Numbered from the stretch's first letter, positions 8,706 to 62,727 are shown. The stretch is DNA of 64,000 nucleotides from Haliotis rufescens (GCF_023055435.1 NW_025964334.1:1860001-1924000); one strand, 5' to 3'. Numbers and translations: made by a program. Notes: generated by a model from the letters alone, not told the origin.

Positions 8706-11700
8706 ATGAGTAAGGTTAACTTTGAGATGGAAGGGATGATGGGAGGTGATTCTGATTCGTCGGATGAAGACAGAATGCAAATAGACGAATCCGCAGCATC
8801 ATCATCAGGGGGACCGCAGACAGCAGAGGATACAGAACTAAAAGAGGAGGAAGAGGAAGGCAGTGATGATGATGATGATGATGGTGACGAAGAAGATGAT
8901 GAAGACGACGATGATGAGGATGATGACGACGAGGATGGCGAAGACGGTGAGGAAGTGGATGAGGTTGAAGGGGAGGAAGATTCTGATGAAGGTTAATTTC
9001 TTTCACCACCTGAATTATGTTAATGAGAACTTCATGTCAATGATGACTGTTTGAAAGTTCATTGGTATGCATAATAAGAAAACCATCTACTGATCATATT
9101 TCATTTCTGGAATGAAAGCTTTTACATAGGTTTTGTCCGTTATCCATATGTTACCCGAAGAATAGGTCTTCAGCGACCCATGCTTGCCATAAAAGGCAAC
9201 TATGCTTGTCGAAAGAGGCAACTAATGGGATCAGGTGGTCAGGCTCGCTGACTTGGTTGATGCATGTCATCATATCCCAATTGAGTGGATCGATGCTCAT
9301 GTCAATCACTGGATTGTCTGGTCTAGACTTGATTATTTACAGATCGCCGTCATGTAGCTGGAATATTGCTGAGTGCGTCGTTAAACAACAAACAAACATC
9401 ATCCACATGTTGCTTAAGACAGTTCTTACAATATATTTGGTGTATCATGTTATGGATCATCCCACCCCTTATGAACCTTGTGACAGTGCCAGGGATTGTC
9501 TTAGGCCGTGATTCAGGGATATTCTCGCATATTTTTCGTGATAGCGCACCAACATTCAATCAGCGCGATTGAAAATCGCATAGATCTTTCAATAGTTTTA
9601 TCTGCATTAACACGCTCATTTTCACCTACAAAAAATGGCATATTGCTTGAATAAATTTATCTGCGGTACTTAAAAATGTCAATAAAAAATTTACACGCTA
9701 GTTTATTCAATCGTCAAAAGTTGTCAATCGAAACAGCGATTTGCATACTCGCAGCATTGCATGCTATCTCTTACTGTGCATAACCAATTCCTATATCACT
9801 GCATGGAGCTTTGCATCAGCTGACAATGGTTGAAGTGTGCAACAATTTTTTTTATCCCCGATTGACAAAACAAGTTTTGTTTTTACAAACTAAACACTTT
9901 GGTAGCACACAAAAATCTTATTATCTAATTAATGTTCGAAAATGGGATATCCAAGGATATATCTATTTAATCTGGTTATATTACTTGCAACACTATTTGA
10001 GGCACAAGTGCTAAAAATCAAATACAGTTTCCCCACCGTGTGAAGATGAAATATCTCTGAAAATTAGCAAAATCTTATCACACGCCAAAAAATCTCATTT
10101 CTTTTGGATCAGGGGTGATTTTCTCTCACAGGTAAAACATTTCCAGGATAATCCCTGCACTGCACAGTTGCCTGGTGACTGTTTGAAATGGACCCTGAAT
10201 GGCCTTATAACCTTAGTTTAATAATTCATAATAGATTTAACATGGTTAAGGGATTCTTATGCTGTAGCATTAAACCTGGAATCCCCTTTATTTGGAACAA
10301 TGTGTTACCATGGTTACTGGATATTAGAGGTGAAACAATACATCAGTGCATCGTGAGTTTTCCTGCACAAATACGATACACGATACATTTTTTTCTGTAG
10401 CGATACAAGACGGTTTGCTTGCTAAAATACATGTCTGCTTGTTTAATGCCCCCACCCCCGGTATTTTTGTCAGTCAAAAATAACAAAATGTGTTGTAATT
10501 AAGTTCACTACTAAAATAGCTGTAACAAACGTTAGCTAGCTTTTCCTTTTCCATCTGCTCTGAAATATTTGTAGTCAAGACATTTCCATATTTCCACATC
10601 TTACGTCTCATATCTTGACCTTTGTATCGTGATTCGTTATGTATTGTGACCTTGCAGTATCATTTCATCTCTACTGGATATAGTTCATTAAGACGTAAGT
10701 AGGTGTATATTCCATGATTGGTTGTTACTGTTCTAGAGTGGGAGTCTGAGGAAGAGGAGGAAGAAGCTCAGGCTGAAGGCTTAGTTGTTGAGAGCGAATC
10801 CGACGACGAGAACGCTGACAATTGTCCAATCTGTCTTAATCGCTTCAAGGATCAAGATGTCGGCACTCCCGAGGCCTGTGACCACAACTTCTGTCTTGAG
10901 TGTATTCAGGAGTGGGCAAATGTACGAAATTCTGAAAATTCTTCTTTCAATATATCTTCTATGGTATCTTCACAAGAACTGGTTTTCACATAGTACCTTA
11001 GTCAGAGTGTACAAATGCATTGTAGTGTACAATGAGTCATTATTTAACGTAATTATGTGTTGATTGACAGAATGTGAATACCTGCCCCGTTGATAGACAG
11101 GTGTTCCGCCTGATTCTTGCCAGACATCCCAGTGAGGACAAGGTTTATGAGAAGGTGAGTGTATCCATGGAAATTATGATGGAACTTAACATTCTAGAAA
11201 CTGTAAATTGGCTGATGTGTCTGGTATTCACCAATATTCACACTCACTTACCAAGGCATGCTAGTCCTGATCTATTGTATGTATATTTCCATATAGCTTA
11301 TCAGAATAATCACTACTCGTGCCATTTGGGCAAAGGAACTAATAATGTCTGGGTGTTGTCATTAGTTATGCAAGAAAATGTTAGTCGCAACCGTTTTAAA
11401 ATTTGTTTGATACAAGGTTAGTATTGATGTAACAATGTTTGTACAGGCTTGAAAAGGCCTTGAATATTAAGGTCCCTCTTGAAAAGCCTTGATTTGTAAT
11501 TTAAACTTGAAAGCCTTGAAAATCACCAAAATAGCTTGAAAAGCCCTGAATTTGTACAAAATGACAAACTTGTCAATAAAGGAATTAAAACACACAAATC
11601 TAATAGTAATGTACCAAGGATGTTTCAGTGTGGTTTATCACAGTGATAGATTTGACACTTGGCTAAACACCTTGAAGAATTCATGATAAGATTTTCATTT

Positions 11701-14700
11701 TATTTATTGGAAATCAATCTTGTTTGAGAATTTGTGCATACTGCTTTTTGAGTATTATAATTAATAGGTAGTATGCTGGATTACAAAAATATTGGCAGAC
11801 TGAGGCTAATAACCCAACTAAAAGTCTTGAAAATGACACATGAAAAGGCCTTGAATTTTCATGTTCCATATCTGTATGAACCGTGCATTACAGATGAAGC
11901 AAAGGTGATGAAGAGCCAAAGTGAATATTTCTCATTAATCACACATTTTTGTGATGTTTAAGTGGAGGTTTTTCATGGTGTTCATGTTTGTAGATCCCTG
12001 TTGAAGATAAGAATGCTCAGGAGGAAGAGGTTGAGGAAGAGCCAACGTACTGCGAGGTGTGCGGCCGTTGTGACCGGGAGGACAGACTACTGCTGTGTGA
12101 TGGCTGTGATCTGGGGTGGGTGCTGGCTCACATCCTGTAGGGCGTCACTGGTTGGGTGGGTGCTGGCTCACATCCTGTAGGGCGTCACTGGTGGGGTGGG
12201 TGCTGGCTCACATCCTGATGGGGGTCACTGGTGGGGTGGGTGCTGGCTCACATCCTGTAGGGCGTCACTGGTGGGGTGGGTGCTGGCTCACATCCTGATG
12301 GGGCGTCACTGGTGGGGTGGTGCTGGCTCACATCCTGTAGGGCGTCACTGGTGGGGTGGGTGCTGGCTCACATCCTGTAGGGCGTCACTCGTGGGGTGGG
12401 TGCTGGCTCACATCCTGTAGGGCGTCACTGGTGGGGTGGGTGCTGGCTCACATCCTGTAGGGCGTCACTGATGGGGTGGTGCTGGCTCACATCCTGTAGG
12501 GGGGTCACTGGTTGGGTGGGTGCTGGCTCACATCCTGTAGGGGTCACTGGTGGGGTGGTGCTGGCTCACATCCTGTGGGGGGTCACTGGTGGGGTGGGTG
12601 GTGTCTCACATCCTGTGGGGGATCACTGGTGGGGTGGGGTGGGGTGGGTGGTGTCTCACATCCTGTGGGGGGTCACTGGTGGGGTGGGGTGGGTGGTGTC
12701 TCACATCCTGTAGGGCGTCACTGGTGGGGTGGTGCTGGCTCAAATCCTGTAGGGGGGTCACTGGTGGGGTGGGTGCTGGCTCACATCCTGTAGGGGTCAC
12801 TGGTGGGGTGGTGCTGGCTCACATCCTGTGGGGGATCACTGGTGGGGTGGGGTGGGTGGTGTCTCACATCCTGTAGGGGGTCACTGGTGGGGTTGGGTGG
12901 TGTCTCACATCCTGTGGGGGGTCACTGGTGGGGTGGGTGGTGTCTCACATCCTGTAGGGGGTCACTGGTGGGGTGGGTGGTGTCTCACATCCTGTAGGGG
13001 GTCACTGGTGGGGTGGGTGGGTGGTGGCTCACATCCTGTAGGGGTTCACTGGTGGGGTTGGGTGGGTGGTGTCTCACATCCTGTGGGGAATCACTGGTGG
13101 GGTAAAACTGGAAGTGGAAGAAAATGTCACTAGTTCCAGAATTGTAATAGTTCCAGAATTGTAATAGCCTTGGACTCGCCGACTTGTGTTTATTGAAGTG
13201 GTTATTGTGTTGCAGGTTTCACTGTGAGTGTCTGTCGCCACCTCTGGCCGACATCCCTGTAGAGGAGTGGTTCTGTTCCGACTGTGCCGCAGCCAACAAG
13301 GAAGGTAAAGGTCACCTAGCTGTTTCTGATTGGTCATTTTCATTTATTGAGGAAGGATATATTTTACCTTATGAAAATGGTATATATTTTTTATTAGCCT
13401 GTTAGTAATCCAGATTGGCAGGCATGAACGAGATAAATGGATGACATGAGATAACAGTGCCTCACGTTCACTGTACATGGTCAACTAACGTGAGGTTAAA
13501 AAGTGTGACTGGTGAGTGTATGTGTGTGTGTAGCTCTTACTGTCAACCATGCGTTTGTCTTATCCTGACTTAACTACATCCATGATGTGTTGTAGTCTTC
13601 TAGACAATATACTAGCCGCTGCTTGTCATAAGAGGCGAGTCAGTGGATCGAGAAGTCACACTCAGTGACTTTGTTGATTGCGTATCATTTCCCAATTGCC
13701 TGGACAGAGCTCCAGATAAGCTGCGTATCTGTGTGAAATACGCATCAGAAATGCAGATCTACGCAGTAAAATATAATCCAAGTGTATCAAATACGCAACG
13801 AACATTACAGATACGCTACAAAAATAAAATTTGTGTGTATCATCAAAATATTGTGAAGTAACCCTGCGTATTCGATCAGCAAATCAGCAACTTATTTTGA
13901 AATTATAAACGGGCATTCCGTCAACCTTGCCAAACTCCACGATGACAGTCACATCATGATCATTTGCCATCACACTTTCGTGTGGAAGTATCGTGGTATT
14001 TTTGAGTCCTATAAAGCTCTCGAACCCACACGACTCCAGTTTGCAGGGACTAGATGAATAGTGTTTTTAAATATTTAACTTAAATACCCACATGTGTAAA
14101 AACTAGTGGGTAACAGAAATTTGAATACGCAGATAGAATTACTGATACCCATTGATTTTAAAATGCATGGGTAAAATACCCACAACACCAAAAGCTTATC
14201 TGGAGCTCTGATGGATCAATGCTAATCACTGGTTTGTCTGATCCATACTTGCCTGTTAACAGATCATTGCCATATCACTGGACGCTTGCTAAGCAGGACA
14301 TTACACACGCACACACACACACACTCTGACTGTTTTGTTGATGGTGTAGGTGCAGTTGAAGAAAGTGAAGAGGAAGATATTGACATCCGCCCCCGACGCC
14401 GTCTCATTGCTCGTACTCTAGTTAGTGAAAGAGTGCGGACGCGGATCAGGCAGACCCGTGTCGAGAGGGCATTACGGCTGCCACCCGAACTCGTTTCCTC
14501 ATCTGAGGTAAGAACGAGATTGAAGTCATGTTCTTCATACATGTTCGATCAATAAACTATTTTCTTGGTAGTTTTAGTGTTGCAGCAAACCTGACAATTC
14601 AGTGATGTCATGTTTTGGACACAACTGCTGATATACAAATGATATCAAGTGGCAGAAATTAATTGTTGAGCCCTGGAATTTAATGTTTTTGTGTTGAATC

Positions 14701-17700
14701 TAGAGCTGGGACAAGTAGCTCGGGTACTGAGGTCGGATGGGTCCTTAGTAGGACCCAGGTACCCACAGGACGACCAGTATCTGTTAGTCACATGATATAT
14801 TTTTTAGTGACAGTGACAATAAAGCTCCATGGTGACATAGGGAGTCACTAATGTTCGCATTTCTTTCTGACTGTGTATGCTTTCCTTCTGATGTTTATGT
14901 GTTTGGGTAAAGATAAAGCTTCAGTCAACTTCAGTGTATGCATGATCAGAATGTACTATACGTGTATCTAAATAGTTTCATAGGGCTCCTGTGAAACAAT
15001 TTCCAATCGGACATTTTGTACCCAATTTGAGGCCTACAGCAGGTACCTGGGTAGGGTAGGGTAGGGTAGAGTCGGGTTTTAGGCCTTCAGTTACCCGGGT
15101 AGTAAATTTGGACTCATCCCAGTCGTACCTGAATCTTTCATTGTGCAGATAAGGCAAGAATGTTGTCTCAGGTGACTGAAAGTCTGCCTATACAGTTAAC
15201 TCTCAATCTCACAACTTCACAACTACAGGAAGAAGGCGTGTCTGCTGCTTCTTCAAGTCAAACATCTGCATCCCCTTTGAAAAAGAAATCTCCTGTCAAA
15301 CGACGAAAGAAGACCACAAGGCGGAAAACCCGTAAACGCAAGAGTCCAAAGAAGCGGAAAACTAAATCCCCAGGCTCGAAAACAAAAAAGAAAACGGCTG
15401 GCAAACGGAGGAGGAAGAGAAAGGGAGGAAAGAAGCGAAAGGTGGGATGATGTCTTGTGTTTGTAATCAGATCAACGTCTACCTGAATAATTAATTAATT
15501 GTCATTAGAACTGAACATTGTGAAGAACAAATATGTACCAAGTACCCATTGCAGGTCAGATGTGACAAAGTTGGAATGGGTAGTCAAAGCCACAGAAACT
15601 GGTTGATGGAATGTCATCGTCCTCTGGTGCTCATTTTTCCGGCACTGGTTTGCCTGGTCCAGACTTGATTATTTACAGACTGACATGATACAGTTTAAAT
15701 ATATCTTACTGAAGCGTTAAAGAACACTTACTTTTAAAAGCTCTGCAACTTCAACAGGACCCTGCCCCACCATGATACACATACACCCACGTTCACATTG
15801 ATGGGGTGGTGGGGTAGCTCAGTGGATAAAGCGTTCACTCGTCTCGTCGAAGACCTGGCTTCGAATCCCTATATGGAATATTGATAAAAACGGCATACTC
15901 ACTCACTCACTCACTCACTCACTCACTCACTCACTCACTCACTCACTCACTCACTCAAATTGACATCCTTGGACATTAGGAGTGTTTTTTAAGACTTGTT
16001 GAAATAGTGTTTAATGAGTCCTCAGAGTTGGTAACGAGACAAAAATGTGTGTCATGTGTACCATGTTTACATTTTTCGTCAGCTTTATTCAGTTAATACC
16101 AAAAGATGTTAAAGATGGTACTTGTTGTTATCCTGTCTGGCGCTCAGTATTATGGGGCTAAAACAAGGACTGGTCGGCTCGGAGTCAGTATACTGTGTCT
16201 AGTGGTGTAGTCATGGTAAACTGCAGCATGGTATCTGAGTGTGCTAGCACTATAAATCGGCATCAGTCCGGACTAGTACAAGCAGCGAAACACGCACATG
16301 TACATGCACGTCGCTATATAAGTGCAATAATCTTCTACGCGACGTTAAACCGCATTTCACCTCCCCTCTGTTATATTCATTTGTAGCAAAATTGAGACCT
16401 GGTTCAGAACTATTGCTCTCAACTGCTACTAGTCCATGAGGACTACCATCTTTGGGTCTGTTCTTGTCGTCAGTACAATTAGTAGTCTCAGGCTAGCAGA
16501 GTAGCGTGAATTTCAAGAGCTGTATTGACTGTGCAACTGTTGCAGCTAAAGAGAGGCAGTCCTCGTACAGCAGCTCCCGCATCCACCACAGTCAAGTCTC
16601 GGATCGCGGGGCGCCTGGGTCTGTCCAAGCCTCCGTCAGGTCTCTCCATACCTATGCAGAAGCTGCCCCAGGAGAAGACGCTAGAGCAACACCGCGCCGA
16701 GGATGTTGGCTTCTCTATACTCGGCCATAAAGACGATCTAGATCATTTCCAAGAGTAAGCACTGTTAAACCTCGTTAATCCAGACACACCCACCTTTTAG
16801 ACAATTGCTTTCTGGATCGCCTTTTTTTAAAAAACATTACTCCTTTATGATGTTTCGTTTGTTAATCCAGTGTCTGCTAATAGCTGTAAGATCGCTGATG
16901 CAGCATTAAACAATGATGACTGCCTCACTCACTCAGAATGGTGCCATCTGGAGTAATGAGGCACCGGTAGTCGAATTGTGAAAGAGTCTTATTTTGTTGG
17001 ACCCCTGTGGAGTCAATAACTCCCTGGGAGCCGTTGTACATAGCGATCTTAGCGCTAAGGTGATCATAACTCCCATACCTTAACATAAGTCTTACGACAG
17101 TTGTAGTGCTAAGCTGTTTCGGACAACAGCACCCTGAACTAGTAGTTTAACAAATTATTACTTCAAAGATTTGGGGAGTTTTGAACCATTTCCGTGAGGC
17201 ACAGTATCATTAGTCCAGTCTTTATTTGCAGTGATGATGTGTCACCTGAAGCTCAACCAAGTGGTAGTGGGAAGGCAGGCCGTCTCACCAAGTATTCTGT
17301 ATTATCATTGAAGTCACATCGTCCTGTTGGCAGAGTCAGAATACCGAAGTAAGTTCAGTTAATTTGTACAGTGAACTCTGTGTGGACCTTGGTGTAAGTG
17401 TCCACAGCACTGTATTGCTTGTCACTTGGGTCAGGTAGTCGGACTATGTGATGTAGTTAATTGCAGACCCGTGAAGATCCGGGGTAGAATAGGTCTTCAG
17501 CAACCCATGCTTGCCACAAGAGGCGACTATGCTTGTAGTAAGAGGCGACTAACCGGATCGGTAGGTCACACTCGCTGATTTTGTTGATGAATGTCGTATC
17601 CCAATTGTGTGGATCGATGCTCATGATGTCAGTCACTAGATTGTCTGGTCCAGACTCGATTATTTACGAACTGCCGTCATATAGCTGGAATATTGCTGAG

Positions 17701-20700
17701 TGCGGCATTAAACAACAAACAAACAAACAAAGCATGTCATCATATTCCAACGGTGTTGAATATTGCTCATTGTATGAATCACTGGTTTTCTTGGTGCACA
17801 CATGATTAATATTCTGGGATGGAAATAAGCTAGCTTGGATGAGTTTTGTTGATGGTATCTGTAAGGCTAGTAGAGTCTTCCTGTATGTTGTCAATATTCA
17901 GGCTGGTGGATGTACTTGGTTAGTTGCCATCCCTTTTGTTCACAAGCAATGTGATGTGGCTGAAATATTGCAGACCGCAGTGTAATACAACAAACAAGAT
18001 CCTCCCTAGGGTACATGAATAGTTATCCATTCTCCTTGACAAAGGGGGCGGTGGGGTAGCCTAGTGGTTAAAGCATCCACTCATCATGCCTGGGTTCGAT
18101 TCCCAACAAAGTGTAAAGCCCATATTTTTAAACTTATCCTATCTCACACTATGCATTTCTTCTTATTCTTTGATCTTGGTGTGGAAACGTCCTAGAACAG
18201 AGTTTCCAGCTTCAAAACACCCCTCACCGAAACACATCCCATACATCACCAAATCACCACTGTGATCATGGTTCACGCACCACTAAAATCCCGTGCAACA
18301 CGACCCCAGCGACCTGAGGTTTAAGAAGAAATGCATAGTTTGAGATAGGATAAGTATATAAATATACAAATTTATTAGAACATTTACAATTCCGGTGTTC
18401 CCCACCTTGAAATTGCTGGAATATTGCTATAAAAAATGGCGTAAAACTATACTCACTCACTCACTCACTCAACCACTCAACCACTCAACCACTCACTCAC
18501 TCACTCACATCATGACAAGGTGTCATATGTATTGTTTCAGTATGGGTTGTCTAAACAAATGTCACCGTAACTTTGTTTAACTCTCCAACTGATGATCTTG
18601 ATGTCTTTGCCAGAGTGTCAACCCCGTCCACCCTCGTGGTCGAGCCAGCAGCAGCAACCAGCTCCACCTTCGACATCCTCGGCTGCATCATGCAGAGTCA
18701 GAGCATCCTCAACATGAAGAGCGGGGATGTCACGATAAAGAGAGACGGTAGGTCCAGCCATCGGATTTCATGCTTGTCTTGAGACCAAGACTACTAATTA
18801 GTGCTGAGGTCAAGTAATAGTCCCTAATGACTAGTTTGAGGCTATGATACTGGACAGTTCTCAATGCTGTGATTTTAGTCAGTCAAGCAGGACTAGCTAC
18901 AAACTCAGAAGGATTAGTGCCATGAGTTAACAATAGTCCTCTGGACTTATCTTTAAAGAAATTAATGATCACAATATCTGTCATTATGGATGCACGGACA
19001 AATATTTAAATAGCAATTTTAAGTAATGTCATGACATGTACAGACTTTTATTACCTCCCCCTGGGGATTAGATTTTGGTTGGCCTAGCCAATTATTGTTC
19101 ATATCTTGTTCATCTATTCAATTTAGATTCTTAACAGATCTCATGTTGAACTATAATGTTCATGGTTGACTTTAACCATCTCATTAATTGGCGAGACCTT
19201 TACAACTAGATCATTAGATGTATTTGATCCCATATTGGTGGAGTGTATCTCATTAATTGGCGAGACCTTTACAACTAGATCATGTAGATGTATTTGATCC
19301 CATATTGCTGGAGTGTGTCTGTATTTCAAGTCACATGTGATTTGCCCTGATGAAATCTTCTTTTGTTTGTTTCTTCTCAGGTTCTCTCGTTGCAAACAAG
19401 CCAGTCCCAAAGGCAGACGTTCATCTGAAACATAGCAACACATTTGAGTTGAACACATTCTCAAAGGAGAAGGAAGTTGATGAGTACGACCCGTCTAATC
19501 CCACAGATGAAGATGCAGCTGATGTTCTGTCCTCGAAGCAAGGCCAACTGGCTCCAGCAGCCTCAATTGGCTTTGACTACGACCCATTTGAACCCACAGA
19601 TGACTCGCCAAGCAAACCTGAGACTGTGTATGATCCTTCCTTTCCTACAAACGAGGACGCAGATATGGGAGAAGATGGCGCCAAGGACAGTGAAAATGAG
19701 ACGGATACTGTTGTGAAAGATATTGAGGATAAGACTGAGCAAGATGATGAATGTTCTAATCTGGACGGGGAAGAGGTGCAGGAGTCGGAGAAAACAGATG
19801 ACGATTGTGTGAAAGAAGATGCATCAGAACCGGACTCCATTCCAGGCATCAAGAGCCAAAGTGATATTTTTGAGGCCAGTAGTGAGATTACATCTGAAGA
19901 TTCCAAGGTGTGTACTGAAGCAAAGGGGGGCGAATGTGATGTTGGGTCTCCGAGTGAAGTGATGGAGTACGCCCTGGACGATACCTCCATGGACTCTGAA
20001 AAACCTCTGCAGATTGATGAAGGTGGAGAAGACGAAGACAGTCAGAAGGCAGAGGATGGAGCTGAAGAGACTCTTGCAGAAGAGGAAGTAGAAGAAACGG
20101 AAACAAATTCTCAAGATGCCAATGAGGGACAGGAGGAAGAGGTTGAGGAAGAAGTCGAGGAAGAAGTTGCCGAGAATGAGGAAGTTGCCGAGAATGAAGA
20201 AGTTACTGAGAATGAAGAAGTTGCTGAGAATGAGGAAGTTGCTGAAAATGAGGAAGTTGCTGAAAATGAGGAAGGAGAAGAGGTGGAGGACGAGGATGGT
20301 GAGGAAGAAGAAGTGGAGGAGGAGGAGGAGGTTGAAGTGGAGGAGGAGGAGGAGGAAGAAGAAGAAGAACAGGAGGAAGAGGAGCAAGAGGCAGGGGGTG
20401 ATGAAGAAGGTGAGATTGAGGAAGAGGTTCAAGCTCGGACAATGGGGTCACATCTAGGGGGATGGGACACAGATGATTCTGACTATGAAATTACCCGAGA
20501 ACAGGAAAACAAGGTGCCCATTTCAGAGTTTCCACGTATTCCTAAGAAGAGGAGTTACAGGAATAAGGATGCTGCTGATGATTTAAGGACAGTGTTGCAA
20601 CGGTTAGATGAAAAAGGCCATGGTCACCGGGCATATGAAAAGAAGGAATCTGTTCATAAGAGTAAAAGAGACTCTGACTCCAAAGATAGGACTTCTAAGT

Positions 20701-23700
20701 ATGATAAGAGGGAAAGAGACTATGAAAGAAGGGATAAAGATAGACGTGATGATCGAGAAGAACGATCACGTGATAAGCATAGCAGAAAAGAACTGTCACG
20801 AGGTGAATATGAAAGTTCGTCTCGGCATAAACGAAGGAAAGACACTAGATCTAGAAGTAGGTCCCGAGAGAGAAAGGATAGCTCTGGGTCACATGACCGT
20901 AGAAGGTCAAGATCACGTGAAAGGTCATCTCGCAAAAAGCGTAGAGAACGGTCATATTCTCGTGAAAGATCTTATGAAAGAGAAAAATCGCACAAGAAAA
21001 AGAGGCGTGATCGTGATCGTAGCCGGGATCGTAGCATTGAACATAGAGGTCGTAGAAGTCGTTCTCGATCTCACAGTCCTAGAAAATATTCTGAAAGAGA
21101 CAGTTATTCTAAACAAAATCGTGATAGTGAAAGATCGTATAAAAGAAAGAGTGACAGGGAAGATTCAAGGAGTGAGTACAAGAAGATTCGATCTGGAGAT
21201 GAGGCTGAAAAGGAAACTACCAAGTATTCCTCAGTGAAAGTTAATCACAGTGCACCCAAATTAGTGCCTGTTTCTTTCACGGATGACCCAATAGTTCTTA
21301 GTGATGATGAGGAGGAGCAGGACCATGAAAATATACCTCTGCCATCCTTCGGGCCAAGTGGAAGTGCAAAGTCCGATTTGGCAAAGAAAAGTGAAAATCT
21401 GGACATCAAAGGTGATAAGCCTGATGCTAAAAGTGATAAGTCAGACAGCAAAAGTGAAAGGGCTAAGAGTGACAAATCAGCAAGTAAGAATGAAAAGCCT
21501 AAATCAGAGAGTGAAAAACATGTCCGTCTTCAGTTGAAGTCGTTTGCCACTAAGAAAGTGTCGGAGCATTTGATTAAGCAGGGTGGTATATTCGGGAAGG
21601 AGCCGTCTGTGTACGACCCCGCTCACCCGACCGATGAGGAACAGGAGACCGAGAAGGGAATCTCAGTGGACTTTCAAGGTGCTGTGCCCAACAGTGCGTC
21701 ACCCGACCTTCCGCCACAGCTCATGCAAAATGCTCACGGACAGGGACCTTTCATAAGTGAGAATGCATTTATTTTGACAAGTGAGCCAGGGGTTATGCAG
21801 CCACAAAATATTCCTCTGCCTGCTGTGACGTTTGGGATGCTTCATCCCCGACTCCAACCAGGCTTGCCCCAAAGACAGATTCTCATGAACCCTGTTATGT
21901 TAAATCAGCCACCTCCGTTCACACAAACCCAGCCAGGTAGATTTCCTCGTCTCCCGACTGGGGCGATGCCTCGGTTTGGCTGGCAGGTGAACCCTCCTGG
22001 CGGCATGTTGCCGCTACAGCAGAACAGATTTGGTGCTCGTATGCCTCCTGGCCCTGGCGGAATGCCCCCAGGGGGTAATGTGATGAACGGTGGCTTCGAC
22101 CCCATGGGTCCTGACCACTCGCGTCCTCCCTTCCCACCTAACATGCACCTCCCACCAGATCACAATCACCCACCTCCAGTGCAGATGAAAATGAACCAAA
22201 TTCGTCCTCTACTGCCGAACCCACTCAGACCACCCCCCGGACCACAGGCTCCAAAATCACAGCTGGAACAGTTGGAAGAGATCTCAAAATTACTAAGTGC
22301 TCAAGCCCAGCTTGCTGCTCTTGAAAAGGACAAATCTGGCCTTAATTCCCCCAGTGGGAAGGGGAACGGCATCTTTAAGGTGCCACTCCCCCCACAGCTG
22401 TTTGGCAAAGGGGCTTTACTGAAGGCGCAGGAGTCGGTGGAGACCACGGAGGTTGTGGACATGGACATGTCCCCGCTAGATGACGACTGTGAGCTGGAGC
22501 TGCCCACCCCGCCCGACTGCATGAACACCGACCCAGATGAAAAACCCAAGAAAAGGACAGTTGACTTGAAAACTTTTAAGAAAACCGTCCAGGAGCTGTC
22601 TTCAACTCAGGATGACCAACCGTCGTCAGCTGCGGACCTCACAAACAAGGACAAGGTACGACTGAATGAGGTTAGGATATGCTTAATAATATAACTTAAA
22701 AAAACAATTTAAGTCATTGATTTTAAAAAGTAATCAAATAATGAACACACATTTTTAAAATCATTAATTTAGGCAATTTTTTCTCTGTATTCTCTTATAC
22801 TCTTAAATGTTATTTTACAACACAAACACGACAAGGAAACTTTGACATGGCACAATTTTAACAATGCTTTTAAAACTTTTTTCAGACTTTCTAATTGTTA
22901 TTCTCAATTTTATTATCGCTACAATTTATTAAATGGTTGGTGGGAATGGATCGCAGATTCTGTGATCTATCAGAAACCAGTCAATAATTGGAACATGTTT
23001 CAGGTAACATGTACTCATTAAGTTATGCCATCTCTGTCAGCCATATTTACTGATCTATGAGACAATATGCAGCAATCATCATGTGCAAACATAAGAAAGT
23101 TACTGCCCACATGGATAGGTAATAACTGTTAACTCCCTTGGATTAACATATCTATTGCCACCCACCTATTCTAAACATAATTTAGTTTTCAGACAAGTTA
23201 TAAATGTGATAAACATGAACTTATCAAAGTGTAACGATTGGTCATTAAGGTCGTTCAGGTTGCCATGGCTACAGTAAATACAATCATGTTTGTTGTGGAA
23301 CTGAGGGAAATATGATGTGAAGCTTGACCTGACCTGACTGATGTTCTACCTGTTTTATTCCAATGCATTGTCTAGGCCCAGTGCAGGGATGAGTTCTCTC
23401 CATTATCGTTGGTTCCTGAAAATTATTGACGGCTGCTGCTTGGACATTTTCAGAAACCATTTGTCATGTTTGTGATGTTTTTGCTTACCTATGTTATTTA
23501 ACCCTGAAGGAAAACTTTCACAAATTATTGAAACAAAAAAGATTTGGGTAAGAATTGGCCTCATGCTTGTTGTTAGAGGCAACTCACAGGATCGGGTGGT
23601 CAGGTGCTCACTGACTTGGTGGATGCATGTCACCCTATCCCAGTTGAGTAAATCAGTGCTCATGATGTCAGTCGCTAGATTGTCTGGTCCAGATTCAATT

Positions 23701-32141: not shown

Positions 32142-32144
<3 letters not shown>

Positions 32145-32191: not shown

Positions 32192-32193
<2 letters not shown>

Positions 32194-35256: not shown

Positions 35257-36968
35257 GTAAGAAATCTTTTTTTCAATTTTGATGGTTAATGATTATTTTA
35301 GAGACATAAAGTAATGCTTTTGATGTTTTAAATGGTATTGTTAATAATTTTGTATTCACCAAACATTAAGACAAATCCTCGATAGTATTATATTTTTTGT
35401 AGCGTAGTTTAATGTCAACACCGTGGGAACCCGTGACACGTGACATGCAGTCAGTGCTCACTGTTTGTAAACACAACCTTCTTCGTTAAAAAAATGTTTG
35501 CAAAGAAGCTGTGACAGTTCTTAAATGTTTGTCACTCGTGTGAATAGGTACTTTTGAAGAAGCGGAACTTGTTGGACGAAGCCTGATTAATGTTCTAGTG
35601 AATCTTTCGTACAATATTTTCGCAACAGACGACCAAATTTGAATTTGCCGCGAAAGTGAGCATGCCAAATTTGGGCAAGTCACACGTCGACTTTTCATTG
35701 ACTCTAAATTTTCCATAATTTCTAATGAAAACAACAATCTCAACATATGAAATTATACTTTTGTATTTTCTGAAGACATTCGAATACGTTCAATAAAACA
35801 CTTATAATTTTGTTTTCAACATTAATTAACACCATGCCCAAATACATTTCATTCGAAGAGTCAATGGGGTAGGCCTAGTGGCCCATTCAACTTTCTGAGC
35901 CTTGCTGCCGCGCACGTACAATGTCTAACGGCTGCTTTTTTAGTGGAAGAAGATTCTTAAATTCTCATGACCAAGATAACTCGACTTCAAGTCTCAAATG
36001 AAAAGGTCTTGTTTTCCGTTTGACATTCTTGATGTGATGAGGCAAAATCCTCCATGATCTGAACAAATGTGACATATGTAAGACCAATGGGAGTTTTTCC
36101 AAAGTCCCTTTTCAACGTGAATATGACATAATATAATCATCAAGACAATCGTAACAATTAATTCATACGAGAATATGACATTTAAATGATGTTCTACAAA
36201 TATTGGAGCATTAAAAAAATGTCTTAATAATATAAGGTGCATGACATAGACTTTAAATGTGAAATTTATCAATGATTTGTTTTTAGATTTACTGGATTGA
36301 GGTAATTAGAATACCTAAAAAATATTGTTCTTCATTGACCATGGTGATTCAGTAGAAACTAACATTTATAGTCCTCATTATGATAACATATTGCAAAACC
36401 CTTAAAATGGCAAATTTCTACTAGGCCTAGTCCTTATGATAACTAATTATGATTGGGCAGTTTGTCTAGGACTACAGGACTATTGCAAATTTCTAATGCT
36501 GGTGTTTTCAAGTAATATTGATGAGTGAATTACTTGTACAGTTTATATATCATTATAATGATTCAGCAAACAGAAAGTATACACGAAGCTCTCACTGGTG
36601 TTCAGTTATCTCCTAGTTATAGAGAACACTCACACTCACATACTCACATTTGTACAAGTGGGTACTGTAGTATCTTATTTGGTTAACAGAAAAAACTATT
36701 TTTATGGTAATAATATAGATATATATCTACCAAGGGCATTACCAGCTGATTACCACAATGGAGGCAGTACAGAGGTCAATCCACCATCACTATTATACTA
36801 ATAGCACCATTGAAGGTTAAAGAGTTTTTCTGCTATTAAATAGTTTTTTAATCTTGTAAAATTTGCTTTATGGCAAGGATCCTTTGACTTTGATCCCTAA
36901 TTTGGAAAACAATATTAATCCTGAAACTGTTTCCCAATTCAGGTGCAAGGCAAGTTGATTTATACAAC

Positions 36969-45900: not shown

Positions 45901-48039
45901 TTGTGTGCATGTTCACTGAACCCTTCCTCTGCACAACAGACTGTATTCAAACCCCGAGGATGTTGATGGGAAGGAACTGCCTGTTATCACTGGAGTGTTT
46001 GACAAAGATGCCACAGGTTCTGATTTTGATGGGTATGTTTACAAATTACATGCAAGAAACCAATTAAATATATCAGTTTTTCACTATAGCGACTATTCTG
46101 AGGCTCAAGTCCCAGTTATATATTTGGTTTGGTCTAGCAAACCCAGGTAATCATTGTCCATATAATCATAACACTAATATCTGCTGAAAATTATTCTAGG
46201 ACCTCTATAGCTACCACATGATGTTAGTATTTTTGTCATTAAAATTTATTATGAAAGTGTATTTCAAATAATTTTTATTAGAATATATTGGTTTGTGTTT
46301 GTTTTTTAACAAATATAGATGAGGTATAGTATAATAGAGTCTTGTGATTCTTTTTTTCTAACTGATGAAATATTTTGATGACATTTAGATAATGCTGTTA
46401 TTCGATATCTTTTATGATTTAATCTTAAACTATCTGACAATGACACCATTCAAGAATGGCAGCTGAGCCTATCAGTGACAATTAATTATTGATCCCCTTT
46501 ACTGCAGGTATTTCTTGTTCTATCGGCAAGTGGCCGAGATGCTGCAGCAGCACATGAGTCGGACTGAAATTGCCTCGCCGTCAGTCGCAGTCACAGTCTC
46601 CCAGATGTGGAACGATATGTCCAGTGATGACAAGGAAACGCTTGCAACTCTTGCTGCTTTGGAAGGGAGTCAAGATTCAAATTCTAGCTCCGGGCTCAGT
46701 GATGATTTGCAAGAGCTTGACGTCAAACCACTAGACTCTTCACATTTCATTGATGGTACTTACTTTATTTAAACTTGAATCTTTACTAGCTTTTGCCGCA
46801 CATATTGCTTGAAAATTGCAAGCATTTATAACACATGACATGGTTGACATAACTCAACCTGTTTTTGAACAAAATAATGATTTTTTCCAAATTTGCCTGC
46901 CTGGGCACTTAGTTCAGAATCCTCGATATATCCCTGGCAGATAAAATCTCTAATTCTTGTTATAGGACATGTTTAATTTGATGTTGCAGCTTCAAAGATT
47001 GGTATTTTCAAGAGAAATCTCCAAGGTGTACCAAATGTCCCCAGTCTTCCGACTGTGTCAGAAACTGCACAAAGAGTTCTCGGAGCAGTCCCCGGTAGTC
47101 AGGACGTTCAGGAAGTCCCCAAGAGTTACCTTCCTTCTCTCGATGACTGTGTTGACTCGTTGGAACACAGCACTGAGGAGATGGCCATCATCAATCTGGC
47201 ATTTCAAGACCAGGAAGGACTCTCACATCTGGGATTTGACCGCACTGAGGTAAGCATTTATAACACACATGACTTTACCTGTTTGTGGTGAAAGTATTAT
47301 GGATGACAACTTGTTAATTGTTTGTTGTGATGTTTAAAGGCTACTTCTTGCTCCTACATTGCCCCTGGTGGTTAAAGCGTTCCCTCGTCACGCCGGAGAC
47401 CCAGGTTTGATTCTCCACATGGGTACAGTGTGTGAAGCTCATTTCTGGTGTTCCCCGCCGTAGTATTGCTGGAATATTGCTAAAAGCGGCGTAAAATCAA
47501 ACTCACTCACTCACTCACCTTACATTCACCTGATGAAGAAGTAGCCTCAAAGTGTTGTTAAAAACAAAAAAGAAGTTGTTATCCATAAAAGTTTCATGTA
47601 TTCAACTCAAATGCTGTTCAAATCTGTGTCAAAAGGACCACAATGAATCAAGTATTTAGGATATAAACGATGAGGGGGACGTCATTTACGTCATCAAGCT
47701 GCAAACGTATGTGATGTCATAACAAAACAATGTTTTATCATGAAATAAATCATGTCTCGTTCTTCATTGTTTTTTGCGATTTGTCACGTAGCTGTCTTGT
47801 ATAACATATTAATTAACAGTTTAGAAGGAATATATCATTGTTCCAAATTAGGTTATGTGTTCATGTGCTTCGTACTTCCCCTGCAGGCTAATCAAGAGTT
47901 TACGACAAGCATTGCAGCAAGCAATGACTACTCGGGCTCGGAGACCTCACAGATAGTGCCGGACATCACGAACATCATCAAGAGGGACGTCCTCCTCAGC
48001 TCTAGTCAGTCCCCCACAGCTGTCACAGCCCATACCTAG
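36969..48039 (+). CDS. STRA8: STRA8-like (STRA8/MEIOSIN family) bHLH + HMG-like transcription factor, about 716 aa
   Basis: Exons 36969-37115, 37274-37349, 38002-38113, 38930-39095, 39703-40107, 40764-40988, 41995-42110, 44438-44512, 44808-44882, 45940-46032, 46508-46755, 46990-47249, 47887-48039; all GT-AG, phase-consistent, 2151 nt, no internal stop. N-terminal RRRQSDAKWRASVSSCYDTLKFVIP..FSKALILQETAKHIRTLEEAVSTLL; C-terminal DFDGYFLFYRQVAEMLQQHMSRTEIASPSVAVTVSQMWNDMSSDDKETL. The gene model is firmer than the name. Confidence 0.75.
38125..38490. repeat. Local ~170-190-bp intronic duplication
   Basis: ATAACCACTTTTT..CTGATGTAAA..AATAATTAT.AATGAGG.TCTGT.GCTG.AAAACCTCAAGGTCCTGAG occurs twice. 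Confidence 0.8.
40148..40305. mobile_element. ~155-bp MITE (CAG(G/C)GTTAGAAA TIR)
   Basis: Family copies at ~36350-36500, 40148-40305, 42148-42300, 43401-43556 and 45594-45749. Confidence 0.8.
42126..43560. mobile_element. Nest of MITEs and SINE B copies in a STRA8-like intron
   Basis: The 14700-type element is interrupted by the 155-bp MITE (TAACT duplicated), followed by SINE B 42585-42845, hAT-type MITE 42847-43209, a degenerate SINE B, and the 155-bp MITE 43401-43556 (CTGAA duplicated). Confidence 0.75.
43822..44363. mobile_element. Non-autonomous DNA transposon, ~70-bp TIRs, 9-bp TSD (Mutator-like)
   Basis: CATCTTCCCGAGGCAAGAGAGTTAACTGACTTTAAAAGT.. and its inverse at the right end; GGAAGTTAC at 43813-43821 and 44364-44372. 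Confidence 0.9.
44976..45210 (+). mobile_element. SINE-like family B with target-site duplication
   Basis: Family B consensus; CACTCAGACTTGT occurs at both ends. Confidence 0.85.
45594..45749. mobile_element. ~155-bp MITE with 5-bp TSD
   Basis: CAGGGTTAGAAA ... TTTCTAACGCTG flanked by TGTCT on both sides. Confidence 0.85.
47362..47517 (+). mobile_element. SINE family A
   Basis: Family A body and ACTC tail. Confidence 0.85.
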
Positions 48040-50439: not shown

Positions 50440-50645
50440 CTTGAGGGAGACTGAAAAGGATGTTGTTGTGATGCTGGGGAGGGAGACTGAAGAGGGTGTT
50501 GTTGAGTTGCTAGGGTCCCCCTGAGGGAGACTGAAGAGGGTGTTGTTGAGTTGCTAGGGTCCCCCTGAGGGTGACTGAAGAGGGTGTTGTTGGGTTGCTA
50601 GGGTCCCCCTGAGGGAGACTGAAGAGGGTGTTATTGTGATGCTTA
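50440..50645. repeat. 44-bp minisatellite, ~4.5 copies
   Basis: CTGAGGGAGACTGAAGAGGGTGTTGTTGAGTTGCTAGGGTCCCC starts at 50521, 50565 and 50609. Confidence 0.92.
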
Positions 50646-52986: not shown

Positions 52987-55367
52987 TTAGCCTTTGCCCT
53001 TGCTTCGCTTGCTGTTATCCTTGCATTTGCATTTCTTCATTAAGCTGCGGAAAATATTCTTTCTTTTGGATCCTTTGGAGACATTGACCTTCTGATCAAT
53101 CAGCTCATTCTTTTCCTCTTTCTCATCTGGGAACACAAAATTCAGTTTGTTAGGAAAACGCGAATAAAACAGTATTCACTCAGTTGGTTGCTTTGAACAT
53201 CTTTCAAGCTGTAACCGGAGACATGGAATGAACAGTTATTCTACCATGATCAGGACATGTTTGAGTGTGCAAGTGATTATTGCTTAACGCCGCATCAACA
53301 ATCTTGCACCTATACGCGGACACGGACCTGGGGTAGAATGTGTCCCCGGCACCCCATTGCTAGCCGTAAGACTACATTGAGAACCCTTGGTGATTCTGGA
53401 TAGATTGACAACACTCTATTGCTTGTCCTAAGAGGCGACTAAATGGATCGGGTGGTCAGGCTCGGTGACTTGGTTGATTGCATGTCAGTATCCCAAATGT
53501 GTGTATCAACGATTCTCATGATGGCAGTCACTGAATTGTCTGGCCAAAACACTATTATTTACAAATCGTGGTTATATAACTGGAATATTATTAAGTGTGG
53601 CATCATACAACAGACAAATCACAAACATATATTATCAATATTAGAAAAGGTACCTTACAACCCTAACAGACTGTCTCGGTCGTCCAGAGCGTCCCCCCGG
53701 AGAGCGGAGGGTCGTAGGTTCGATCCGGGCGCGTCATACCAAAGAGTTAGTGAGTGAGTATGGTTATACGCCGCTTTTAGCAATATTCCAGCAATATCAC
53801 GGCGGGGGACACCAGAAATGGGCTTCACACATTGTACCCATGTCGGGAATCGAACCCGGGTCTTCGACGTGACGAGCGAACGCTTTAACCACTAGGCTAC
53901 CCGACCGCCCCTCATACCAAAGACGTGTAAAGAATGGTACTTGTTGTTACCCTGCCTGGCACTGACATTAAGGGGCTAAAACAAGTACTGGTCGGCTTAG
54001 AGTCAGTATGCCGTGTCTGAGTACGGTATTCATGTTAAACTGAGGCATGGTATCTCAGTGTGCTAGCACTATAAAATCGGCATTAGTCCGGACTAGTTCA
54101 AGCAGCCACACACACGTGCATGCACGTTGCATTATAAGTGCAATAATCTTGGACGCGGGGTTAAACCCCATTCCACCTCACTGCCAACCCTAGCAACCCG
54201 GGTGTTGAACCTAAATTATGGCACTCGCCTTAGTCGCCTCATATCGACTAATGCATGACCTAACTATATAACACATGCACCAGTGCAACCTATTATTGAA
54301 AAAATGCAACCTAACGTTTATGTCTACATGCACTATTAATTTATGTTTTGTTTGTTCGTTGTTTAACGCCACACTCAGCAATATTCCAGCTATATGACGG
54401 CTGTCTGTAAATAATCGAGTCTGGACCAAACAATCCAGTGGTTGGCATGTTGAGCATCAATCCACGCAATTGACATATGATGACATGCATCAACCAAGTC
54501 AGCGAGCCTGACAACCCGAACATTAACTCAGGGAGTCAACAAATCCGCTGGAAGACAACCACCTGTTTGATGGTTGAATTCACATTCAATAAAAGATCTG
54601 ATGATCCTTAAAGAGTATAAAAACCAATACAACAGAAGTTCAATTGTCATAGTCAAAACGTCAGTCCTAGTTTTAAATTCACCTTCCTAGGACTACCATT
54701 TGGCACGAACCAATAACATTCTTTGAATAAGAAGCAGACCCCCAGCCATACCTTCGGCGGTTGACAAGGCGGTGGAGTTTTCCTCTATGGTGGGACCCTC
54801 GCCTGAGGCGGGTATGTCCAGATCAAAAGCAAGTTTGGGAGAGTCCATGCCCTCCTTGGATTGTCCGATGAACATGGATGATTCACTACTGGTGAGAGAC
54901 ATCGATGACCCGCGTCTGAGAGGCAGATGTGATATGTAGCCATAAGGGTCATCCTGGAGATACTTGATCCGATCCAGCCAGTTGTCCCATTTAGAATTCC
55001 CCTCACGCACGGTGGATAACTCGAAATAGCGGGATCGAGTGTGTCTTGCGGACACTTTCAAGATAAAGTCTTCTGGCACGGTTGAGATGTCTACTGATCT
55101 GAGAGGAATGATCCACTTTAACTCCATCCCGTCAACTGCAAGGTCGACATCGACGGTAGAGGTGATGGCAGGATCTTCCTTCCAGTTGAGAATGTATCGT
55201 CTGCCGAGTAGGAGATGGTCTGGAGACAGGCCCAGCACGACCTGCTGTAGAGCATCGCCACATTTGTCCAGCTCTACAAACGTTGCCTCGAGGAGGACAA
55301 TGTCTTCAAGGTCGCTGTATTCATCCATTAGCAGCAGTTTCTGGAGAGGACCCTTGATTTGATCCAT
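52987..55367 (-). CDS. FAM71/GARIN (Golgi-associated RAB2 interactor)-like protein A, about 251 aa
   Basis: Coding exons 55367-54752 (GAAG|GTATGG, phase 1) and 53126-52987 (DEKEEKNELIDQK..KGKG*); acceptor just upstream of 55401 and a candidate non-coding exon ending at 56520 (GTAAGT). Motifs GPLQKLL..DEY, LEATFVEL...G, VVLGLSPD.LLL, MELKWIIPL.SVDIS, RYFEL, W.NW...I..L. Confidence 0.7.
53670..54183 (+). mobile_element. SINE family C with a SINE A copy (53746-53911, -) nested inside
   Basis: 12-bp TSD TCATACCAAAGA at 53734-53745 and 53912-53923; GGTTCGATCC B-box in the host head. Confidence 0.88.
54344..54520 (-). mobile_element. SINE-like family B, 3' half
   Basis: Reverse complement of the family B tail and body. 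Confidence 0.82.
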
Positions 55368-56633: not shown

Positions 56634-56761
56634 AGATTATTGTGCTTTTTCACATCACTGAATCACTCTAATGTGTCGTCAAATTATGAGTTGATTCGTA
56701 ACCTGTGTGTTCCCGCTTCTACAATAACAGTTGGAAAGATGACTCTTGTGAATAGATACTA

Positions 56762-59265: not shown

Positions 59266-59289
59266 TGACGTCATAATGGTATGACGTCA
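59266..59289. promoter_or_regulatory. Twin palindromic CRE sites upstream of GARIN-like B
   Basis: TGACGTCA at 59266-59273 and 59282-59289. Confidence 0.6.
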
Positions 59290-59382
59290 CAATCACAGTC
59301 CATCAATAATGATTCCGGTGAGGTGACAACGTATAGCATGACCTGTAGATTCAACAAATTTACAAACAACGCAACTCGGTTC

Positions 59383-62300
59383 ATGAAACATCGCATCGGG
59401 GGACGCTCTAAGGCAGGGAAAAGGACGGGCAGAGTAGCCAAACTACTCAAGCGTGGTGACTACCCGGGGATGTCCACGGACATTGTCCTGGAAGCGCCCT
59501 GTTTCCAGCTGCGAGCGGACGGAGAGGTGGACCGCCACGTGTTTATAGGGCTGACCACAACAGATTGTGTTATGGCCGTACAGCGTCTTCCAGATTACGG
59601 GGAACATCCTGGCGTGAAGTACAGAGCGAATGTCGACCTGGATGTGGAGGGAATGGAACTCGTCTGCTCGGCTCCGCTGAGGTTTATCAGGTATAACACA
59701 ATATATGTCTGGTTAGTTTGTTTGTTTTTGTTGTTGAACACCGCACTCAGCGATATTTCAGCTATATGATGGCGGTCTGTACATAAACGAGTCTGGACCA
59801 CACGATTCAGCGGTTGACATAACGAGCATCGATCCACGCAATTGGGATACGATGGCATGCATCAACAAAGTCAACCAGTCTGATCCCGTTAGCCGCCTTT
59901 ACGACAAGCATACTCGCCTGTTTCGGCAAGCATTGGTTGCTGAAGACCTATTCTACCCCGGATCTTCACGGGTCATATGTTTGGTTGTCGTTGAACGTAG
60001 CAGTCACCAGTATCCCAGCTATATCACGGCGGTTTGTAAACAATCCAGTCTGGTAAACAAACAAACAGTGGTCCTATGTCAGTCAGAAATCAGTTAAACA
60101 GCGCTGGTGGCGAGAGTAGTTGGATGGGGGACGTGTTTGGCAGCTTGACTCCCGAGTTTCTTGGGCTCTGACCTTGCACCCCACTGACCCATTGACCGAG
60201 GTAATAATGTAGCGCCCTGAGCAAGCATGCTTAAGGGTGTGAATTTGGCGCATTGTAACATATACATCATTGATAATAAATGGAGATCTCATCAGACGTT
60301 GTCTATGAATTATGTTTATTGTTTGTGTTTGTGTACACACTTGAAAGCAGTTCTTCTGATCATACACAGAGTTTCGTCCCTTATGTGTATCAGAAACCTG
60401 GGTTCGAATCTAGACTCGCCCCAATTATGAACCTCGGTTTATCCGCACCATACCCGTGCTCGTTGTTTACCAAAGTTACGTCTTAGACCGACGCAACATC
60501 ACACAACAAGCTGACATAATCAGTGCTATAAGTGGAATACTGTTCAGAGCTGCGTACAACCAAACTCACTCACTCACTCTACTGATATATTTGTATATTT
60601 TCATATATTTCTAGGTTTTTCCTGATTGACACGCGGTCCCGGAAGTTCGCGATCTGCACAAATCTCGGCAGTGTGTGGTACTTCGAGATGTGCAACTCGG
60701 CCGATGGCTCAGACGAACTGTGGACAAACTGGCTGGAAATGATCCACGCCCAAGACCATCCCGAGTGGTTCGGATACCGGACGTGGACAGTCGGTCGGAA
60801 GGACGCCATGGACGCCAGAAAATCAACATTACCCAGAGACACCAAGGGGAAAGACGGGATCCTTAGATTCATCAAGAGACCACTTGCATTCTGTGCTGTA
60901 GATAACGTTGGCACCCAGATCCCCTTTGCGAGGCTCCATTCCAAACAGCCTGGAAGAGCATTCCGAACTTCAAACGCTGATTCTCATATGGAGAAGAATT
61001 CTCCTTTTAAACATGTCAAATTTGTAATCCCACAAGTCCGAAAGTCCCAAACAAGAACAAAGTGTGATGAGGTGCGGCAGTCCCAGTCTTCCACAAATCT
61101 TTCCGCAAATCTTTCCGCATCATACACGTGCAGAGGCAAGCGCCACGTGGTCAGGAAGAGCCAATCAGAGTGCATGCTGGGTGGCGGGTCAGGGTTCACC
61201 CCTGGCAGCGGCCTGTACTTCAAGTACACGACCCTGGCCTTCTTGAGCGAAGCTCTACGGGCTGAGCCTCACAGAGCCGTTGACATCGCCGCCATCCGTT
61301 ACCACAAGTGGGGCATCACCAAGACCTGTCTCAACCAGCTGCAGAAAGTAAATACCGTATTTCCTCTATTTAGAAATCAGTGCTTTTCATAGAGGTCGAC
61401 CTATATTTCACGACCACACCTCTAGATTCCACCTCTAAAGACCATACCTCCAGACCCAACCTCCAATAGAGATTGGCCCATACCAAAAGTCGTTAAAAGA
61501 TGGTACTTGTTGTTACCCTGCCTGGCGCTCGGCATTAAGGGGCTAAAACAAGGACTGGTCGGCTCAGAGTCAGTATAGTGTGTCTGAGTGGGGTATTCAT
61601 GTTAAACTGCAGCATGGTATCTCAGTGGGCTTGCACTATAAATCTGCATCAGAGCGGACTATTACACGGCCACACACACGTGCATGCACGTCGCTACCAG
61701 GGCAATAATCTGGGACGCGACATTAAACCCCATGTCACCTGACCTCAATTCATATACCTGATGAAACCTCACACTACTTAAAGAAATAAAAGCGACAAAA
61801 CCCTTCCCGTAGTAATACACGTTTCGATTATCTGCAGAAACAGATTCCATTGAGCGTAAAAGGTAATATTGTAATACAAAGTTTATTAATGTATATGTAT
61901 TCTAACCCGGGTCGTCTCTGTTGTTTATGTTATTTTTGTTCTGTGACCTTTGGGTGTGTTGGTTTTATGAAGATCCACCTCGTCCATACACAAGGGACAT
62001 TATAGTCTTCATGGAACGGACCTAGGTTAAATTGAACACATATAATCGACTTGTAGGCTATGTATTAATTGTTCAAATAACAAAGAACCGGTAGTGTTGC
62101 CTTTGTGTGTCAGTTCGTTGGAACTCGACTTGATTTTTATATACACTAGTCACTATGTGACTTTTGTTTCAGATTTGGAAAGCGCGGAATGAAGAGAGAT
62201 TAGCAAGAGAACGCAAGATGTAGGTAGAAGTATATCACAAACGGTCGTGTTTAAATACTAGTAATAAGAGAGATGTGACATCTTACTGATGCCTGGAATA

Positions 62301-62727
62301 AAAGGCATAGACAGTGTTTTGTTTGTTGTTTAACGCCGAACTCAGCAATATTCCAGCCATATGACGGCGGCATGCTAATAATCGAGTTTGGGCGAGACCA
62401 TCCAGTGATTGATATTGTGAGCAACGATTCACGTCGTCGGGGTACAATGACACGCAATCAACCAAGTCGCCGAGCCAGCATGGTTACTGGGGACAGATTC
62501 GAATGCAGAATCCAACAGGTGCAGGTATACCATGAAACCTTACAACACAACTCTCGATTAACTCGACTCATCAGTTTGAGATGATGTAGCTTATAATTAT
62601 ACACCATGGCCTCGTATTGGCTGTGTTGAAGTGAGTAACTTTATTGACATTTTTTTCAGGGAGCTCAATCGTGACGATTCCGATGACAGCATAACGGATT
62701 TAGTCAAAGAATTCGCTCAACCAAAAA
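59383..62727 (+). CDS. FAM71/GARIN-like protein B, paralogue of A; 3' end probably beyond the window
   Basis: Exons 59383(or 59338)-59690, 60615-61347, 62173-62219, 62660-62727 (phases 2, 0, 2, 1). GRVAKLLKRGDY, VLEAPCFQL...G, VFIGLT, VDLDVEGMELVCSAPLRFIRF, WYFEM, LWTNWLEMI align with protein A. Confidence 0.68.
59712..59974 (-). mobile_element. SINE-like family B, full length
   Basis: Reverse complement of the consensus, ending CCCCGGATCTTCACGGGTC. Confidence 0.88.
61478..61747 (+). mobile_element. SINE family C, 5'-truncated
   Basis: Near-identical to 53912-54183. Confidence 0.8.

Follow-up and report, generated by a model that had tools for sequence, protein, structure and literature searches.

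Linkage of PHRF1, a STRA8-type gene and GARIN-like genes in abalone probably reflects a shared ancestral chromosome rather than a conserved germline cluster

One stretch of the Haliotis rufescens genome carries PHRF1, a STRA8-type gene, and a GARIN-like gene in close succession, which raises the question whether these neighbours form an ancestral germline neighbourhood, as a first-pass annotation had proposed, or share a chromosome by descent. We assembled four gene models from splice sites in the window, by which we mean the whole analysed stretch of 64,000 nucleotides (NW_025964334.1:1860001-1924000). The exon models bore out the three annotated genes within 55 kb and at the places assigned to them, and revealed a minus-strand gene at 52987-55367 (gene 4) that had been overlooked, leaving the three-gene layout correct but incomplete. 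The GARIN-like gene (gene 3) indeed starts at 59281, but does not end at 62727, as its frame of nine exons and 1397 codons runs past the window. Between the coding ends of consecutive genes lie gaps of 12.5, 4.9, and 3.9 kb. The features of the window and its immediate downstream flank are:

8706-24516, plus strand: PHRF1, pro-orthologue of PHRF1/SCAF1/SCAF11; 12 coding exons, 1684 aa
30738-31688, minus strand: remnant of a Tc1-type transposase between PHRF1 and the STRA8-type gene
35200-35257: candidate non-coding first exon of the STRA8-type gene, with a donor site; acceptor at 36943-36968, before the ATG exon
36969-48039, plus strand: STRA8-type bHLH and HMG gene; 13 coding exons, 716 aa
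36969-37349, plus strand: exons 1-2 of the STRA8-type gene, bHLH domain
45940-46755, plus strand: exons 10-11 of the STRA8-type gene, HMG-like domain, starting DFDGY
52987-55367, minus strand: gene 4 (LOC124149754), with a weakly GARIN-like N-domain; two exons (55367-54752 and 53126-52987), 251 aa
57030-57860, plus strand: remnant of a Tc1-type transposase between gene 4 and gene 3
59281-62727, plus strand: first four of nine exons of gene 3, GARIN-like N-domain and RasGEF; 1397 aa overall
Downstream flank L004:294-7085, plus strand: remainder of gene 3, 7 kb past the window end
L005:1799 to L011:5352, minus strand: multi-exon Na/H exchanger with a voltage-sensor-like transmembrane exon, tail-to-tail with gene 3
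1-2657, 12112-13103, 50479-50643, and 63498-64000: tandem arrays with units of 13, 40, 44, and 267 bases

Within 100 kb to the left, the flank encodes an SLC6 transporter, a Toll-like receptor, a CDP-alcohol phosphotransferase, and an M20 peptidase. Within 100 kb to the right, the next gene downstream of gene 3 is the Na/H exchanger, which carries a cyclic-nucleotide-binding domain and which we take to be of the sperm-type SLC9C kind. The M20 peptidase is a CNDP-type dipeptidase and the Toll-like receptor gene is intronless, encoding 879 aa (L014-L023). The 40-base tandem array begins at the donor of the PHRF1 exon encoding the PHD domain and occupies the whole intron.

The PHRF1 model is open over 1684 aa without an internal stop, and Pfam assigns RING, PHD, and SCAF11-like_C domains to the protein, which in addition has an RS-rich region; the combination of RING, PHD, and SRI-type C-terminus by which PHRF1 is recognised is present in the abalone gene. 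Its SRI exon is 100% identical to that of the PHRF1-like genes of Haliotis asinina and H. rubra. The domain set is shared with the family of the vertebrate ohnologues PHRF1, SCAF1, and SCAF11, all three of which are represented by the single abalone gene. That these vertebrate genes are paralogues from the genome duplications, as had been suggested, is in line with the supplement of PMC8040251 (Lamb 2021), whose rows assign SCAF11, PHRF1, and SCAF1 to paralogon 6 A, C, and D, respectively.

The STRA8-type gene is annotated by NCBI as two loci (441 and 278 aa) that are split at 44438-44882. Because the four joints from exon 8 to exon 12 are all spanned by contigs in four of four runs, which stem from four studies, this split is likely an annotation error. 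These spliced contigs represent transcripts of the STRA8-type gene, and the runs carry no tissue labels. The gene is 99% identical to a H. cracherodii model that is annotated as a single gene, and it is single copy in the H. rufescens assembly, where one match was obtained (one candidate scored). At 44438-44882, the contigs are one codon longer than the window sequence. The Argopecten gene is likewise split in its annotation, and the Bulinus gene (P0009) is annotated as fused to an upstream protein of 3,200 aa without a Pfam match, which is not PHRF1 and is probably a neighbouring gene.

The assignment to STRA8 rests on two domains. On the Pfam profile bHLH_STRA8 (PF23175; cut-off 25 bits), the abalone protein itself reaches 16.9 bits and stays under the cut-off. 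The HMG exon, used as a query, led to the Lottia orthologue, which scores 27.3 bits, and the amphioxus family protein scores 39.4 bits; Lottia and amphioxus are the only 2 of 39 invertebrate-or-unknown family proteins with a domain table that pass this cut-off. A HMMER search with the Lottia orthologue returned 70 matches, 25 of which were looked up, and the 23 that could be named comprise gastropods, bivalves, the nemertean Tubulanus, the tick Ixodes, amphioxus, and coelacanth STRA8. Vertebrate matches were weak in this search (E 3e-5 and 3e-4), and the amphioxus sequences connect the invertebrate and vertebrate groups. Profiles built from invertebrate domains only gave coelacanth STRA8 28.0 bits for the bHLH and 35.1 bits for the HMG domain, compared to maxima of 3.9 and 6.3 bits, respectively, in 900 shuffled sequences; because the vertebrate rows came from the same search, these scores are a check of both domains rather than an independent discovery. 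Direct BLASTP of the HMG-like domain against coelacanth STRA8 yielded an E-value of 4e-6, and a profile-profile comparison of the bHLH with the STRA8 type reached 97%.

The domains also occur in the STRA8 order, an N-terminal bHLH (over the cut-off in Lottia and amphioxus) followed by the HMG-like domain, which opens with DFDGY in abalone and with EFEGY in coelacanth. The abalone protein differs in the long spacer that separates the two domains within its 716 aa and in its score below the Pfam cut-off. MEIOSIN (BHMG1) shares the architecture of bHLH plus HMG (PMC13637641) and belongs to a similar length class. It was dropped as the nearest relative, as the named vertebrate match and both domain profiles point to STRA8; the name MEIOSIN was absent among the 23 named matches (25 of 70 looked up). 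On this sequence evidence we are highly confident that the abalone bHLH and HMG gene is STRA8-type, with a small chance that the call is wrong. That the gene is a strict orthologue of STRA8, and not of STRA8 and MEIOSIN jointly, appears somewhat the better reading. By analogy with vertebrate STRA8, the protein may be a transcription factor that works at the entry into meiosis.

Is the second germline assignment, that to GARIN, equally secure? The model of gene 4 is identical to NCBI LOC124149754, and the N-domains of gene 3 and gene 4 share 30% identity over 145 aa (E 2e-15). A local inverted duplication is the likely origin of this pair, in which one copy forms the N-terminus of a Ras-family exchange factor. 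Ten of the ten best Atlas matches of gene 4 with an assigned family share the GARIL family, and its N-domain lies nearest to GARIL-bearing clusters with scores of 0.87 (13% of members), 0.83 (95%), and 0.83 (76%), language-model values that the tool itself treats as leads only. Against this likeness to GARIN/FAM71 stands the Pfam result: PF12480 (GARIL_Rab2_bd) had no match in four family proteins or in the exons of either gene, and a search of the H. rufescens assembly with its profile gave nothing over the cut-off. Exon 1 of gene 3 had no usable Atlas match. A PDB search with the GARIN-like profile returned patatin only (E above 1), and two structure predictions of GARIN-like domains had pLDDT values of 38 and 46, too poor for a fold search. 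The relatives recovered for gene 4 were Haliotis orthologues and one contig of 921 bases.

The RasGEF part of gene 3 is better defined. Three successive exons correspond to positions 2-27, 38-75, and 77-113 of Pfam RasGEF, one of them above the cut-off, the catalytic blocks of RasGEF (CDC25) occur in order, and all six PDB matches of the region are Ras-family GEFs. Mouse GARINs, which are testis-predominant, are described in PMC11236154 with a RAB2-binding domain alone, whereas in gene 3 the GARIN-like domain is fused to a RasGEF. Overall, the sequence comparisons make it fairly probable that the GARIN-like domain is homologous to GARIN, with a considerable chance that this call is wrong, and functional equivalence ranks lower. 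The architecture of gene 3, a GARIN-like N-domain, a RasGEF, and a long low-complexity tail, was matched to no named family.

To compare linkage in other molluscs, we determined for each species the length of the sequence record bearing each named protein. Among the best 120 of 554 PHRF1 matches, seven species outside the abalones yielded both PHRF1 and the STRA8-type gene, and 14 other named species had no partner among the matches listed. In this set, both genes lay on a common record in all three chromosome-level molluscs (record lengths 44,824,366 in Pecten, 44,345,813 in Argopecten, and 42,099,524 in Babylonia), of which Pecten and Argopecten are not independent cases. This common chromosome strengthens the STRA8 call moderately and independently, a role that synteny had been expected to play. 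In contrast, among the same 120 matches the two genes were on separate scaffolds in four of four scaffold-level snails (Batillaria, 1.41 vs 0.71 Mb; Bulinus, 2.50 vs 4.34 Mb; Elysia, 0.27 vs 0.43 Mb; Candidula, 0.83 vs 1.36 Mb), pairs that may mix assembly versions. The chromosome-level part of the proposed synteny was recovered in other molluscs, but the adjacency in distant lineages that a conserved neighbourhood implies was absent from the four snails. The rough chance of a break falling inside a 50-kb gap is 0.05 for Batillaria, 0.015 for Bulinus, 0.14 for Elysia, and 0.05 for Candidula, and the locus tags of the two genes are 13,000 apart in Batillaria and 55,000 in Bulinus. The four snails amount to about two independent lineages, and their SRI genes are without RING and PHD. 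Because a tree of 18 SRI C-termini shows single lineages outside a duplication in Babylonia (heterobranch genes in one clade, 98/99; Babylonia duplication later than Batillaria, 97/92), the snail SRI genes among the matches listed are not wrong paralogues.

Among the abalones, a 0.99-Mb contig of H. rubra carries both PHRF1 and gene 4, and in H. cracherodii the STRA8-type gene and gene 4 are on one record. Gaps between accession or gene numbers were tried as a measure of distance and rejected, as genes that truly adjoin have numbers 35 to 1,285 apart, the latter in H. cracherodii, and the two halves of one Argopecten gene are 388 numbers apart. Because such gaps cannot place genes within chromosomes, adjacency could survive in scallops or Babylonia. 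The absence of the RING/PHD half extends over caenogastropod and heterobranch SRI genes (P0085, P0100, P0124, P0125, P0127, P0132, P0153, P0167), which in this respect resemble vertebrate SCAF1. Babylonia has two SRI genes on different chromosomes, the second on a chromosome of 45.6 Mb.

How does the abalone linkage relate to the human map? STRA8 is contained in a 7q33-q35 deletion alongside CHRM2 and TRIM24 (PMC4433680), and in the rows of the PMC8040251 supplement human 7q32-34 bears 6A genes (LRRC4, 128.0 Mb; CALU, 128.7 Mb; CHRM2, 136.9 Mb; TRIM24, 138.5 Mb) interleaved with 5A genes (FLNC, 128.8 Mb; PLXNA4; BRAF). STRA8 therefore sits in a mixed 5A/6A block, compared with paralogon 6 for the PHRF1 family and paralogon 3 for the MEIOSIN block. 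Because STRA8, FAM71, and BHMG1 were absent from the rows of the PMC8040251 supplement that were searched, and the supplements of PMC8809688 and PMC12954441 held no usable STRA8 or GARIN entry, we infer the paralogon of STRA8 and GARIN from their neighbours. STRA8 would belong to paralogon 5 or 6, and its linkage with PHRF1 in molluscs favours 6, with which the chromosome placement of the abalone gene is compatible. CALU is presumably close to GARIN1A/B, and MYBPC2 and LRRC4B presumably flank GARIN5A, positions that would fit paralogon 6. LRRC4B is listed as 6D (PMC8040251).

The first-pass annotation had further drawn on human 19q13, where MEIOSIN and SCAF1 both reside. This argument fails because the neighbours of MEIOSIN belong to paralogon 3 and not 6: BHMG1 (MEIOSIN) lies among FBXO46, SIX5, DMPK, and FOXA3 at 19q13.32 (PMC10449981), and DMPK, FOXA3, and EML2 are assigned to paralogon 3D in the consulted rows of PMC8040251. 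The MEIOSIN block is about 3.9 Mb from SCAF1 on human 19q13, and in reedfish FOXA3 is on chromosome 18 and the 6D genes are on 11. The conserved vertebrate neighbour of SCAF1 is described as IRF3, not a germline gene (PMC12220609).

Taken together, we favour the reading, at a probability of about 0.72, that the neighbours in the window stem from one ancestral chromosome with shuffled gene order rather than from a conserved germline cluster. The pre-vertebrate chromosome behind paralogon 6 was probably the old common home of PHRF1 and the STRA8-type gene, which inversions in the abalone line may have brought together. Gene families leave their ancestral chromosome at less than 1% per 100 My (PMC13689697, whose supplements cover 6,495 families in 46 invertebrates), and adjacency is almost wholly lost between phyla, with no common function found within linkage groups (PMC8809688). 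As families stay on their chromosome and their order is scrambled, inversions can juxtapose any two genes in one lineage. The chromosome-level linkage is mostly ordinary macrosynteny and as such expected, resembling the ancestral linkage groups in that linkage is retained and order is lost. The putative sperm-type SLC9C-like gene directly downstream runs against this shuffled-chromosome reading, as it would suit a germline domain.

That gene, together with the tight gaps, the common chromosome in all three chromosome-level molluscs, and the testis-predominant expression of mouse GARINs, is what speaks for a co-regulated germline neighbourhood in which a meiotic-entry factor and genes of spermiogenesis have stayed together since the ancestor of bilaterians. 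We consider this very unlikely, given the separate scaffolds in the four snails, the paralogon 3 origin of the MEIOSIN block, and the remaining flanking genes, a CNDP-type peptidase, a CDP-alcohol phosphotransferase, a Toll-like receptor, and an SLC6 transporter. The human paralogues moreover lie megabases apart, and the functional cluster of premeiotic and spermiogenic genes that had been suggested for the locus is not upheld by them. An older adjacency of PHRF1 and the STRA8-type gene alone, present in the mollusc ancestor, kept in abalones and perhaps scallops, and lost in caenogastropods and heterobranchs along with the remodelling of PHRF1, needs no germline function of the linkage. All separated cases are indeed snails whose SRI gene is without RING and PHD, the record-length test leaves room for any position within the scallop chromosomes, and the Babylonia gene numbers are 74 apart compared to 35 for true abalone neighbours. 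The Pecten numbers, however, are 279 apart, the half of PHRF1 that adjoins the STRA8-type gene in abalone is the SRI half, which is also the one that occurs elsewhere, and adjacency is seldom retained over such times (PMC8809688). This explanation is therefore unlikely as well.

Finally, the remote homologies themselves could be wrong or hold at the fold level only, in which case the bHLH and HMG gene would be an independent invertebrate family, the GARIN-like domain an unrelated beta-rich module, and the human map irrelevant. The few family proteins over the bHLH_STRA8 cut-off and the weak vertebrate matches would agree with this, as would, for GARIN, the absence of a Pfam match, of any hit over the cut-off in the assembly, and of an Atlas match for gene 3. 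On the other side, both domains match STRA8 in order and far above the shuffled maxima, the profile-profile comparison and the bridging amphioxus sequences connect the groups, and the ten best Atlas matches with a family agree on GARIL. We regard such a failure of both assignments as highly improbable and retain the shuffled ancestral chromosome as the likely explanation of the locus.

A protostome STRA8-type gene outweighs the linkage in value, as it counters the statement that Stra8 is vertebrate-specific (PMC4574967). A 2026 study takes MEIOSIN for the core, which STRA8 came to reinforce later, with more distant species outside its sampling (PMC13637641). The literature searched on invertebrate STRA8 or MEIOSIN and on GARIN evolution, whose coverage excluded most subscription journals, contained no description of this invertebrate family. 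Because the Lottia protein already carries PF23175 in databases, the resemblance was unremarked rather than hidden. We tentatively propose, at somewhat less than even odds, that STRA8 is bilaterian, a single factor on the proto-paralogon-6 chromosome of molluscs, nemerteans, ticks, and amphioxus that would trigger meiotic entry, and that MEIOSIN is a relocated or later-derived partner. Since abalone, scallop, oyster, and amphioxus each carry a STRA8-type gene in single copy, one can test directly how the switch into meiosis arose in animals, and the gene is a candidate sterility gene for shellfish breeding.

Three further observations concern the wider family. A metagenome scan recovered a single contig of 5 kb, whose first exon is bivalve-like and whose 4.1 kb upstream contain no PHRF1 or GARIN-like match, a length that is too short to be informative. 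The Ixodes protein (P0071) has the STRA8-type bHLH, with no HMG domain detected, and Dreissena carries a second, truncated locus that encodes the bHLH only.
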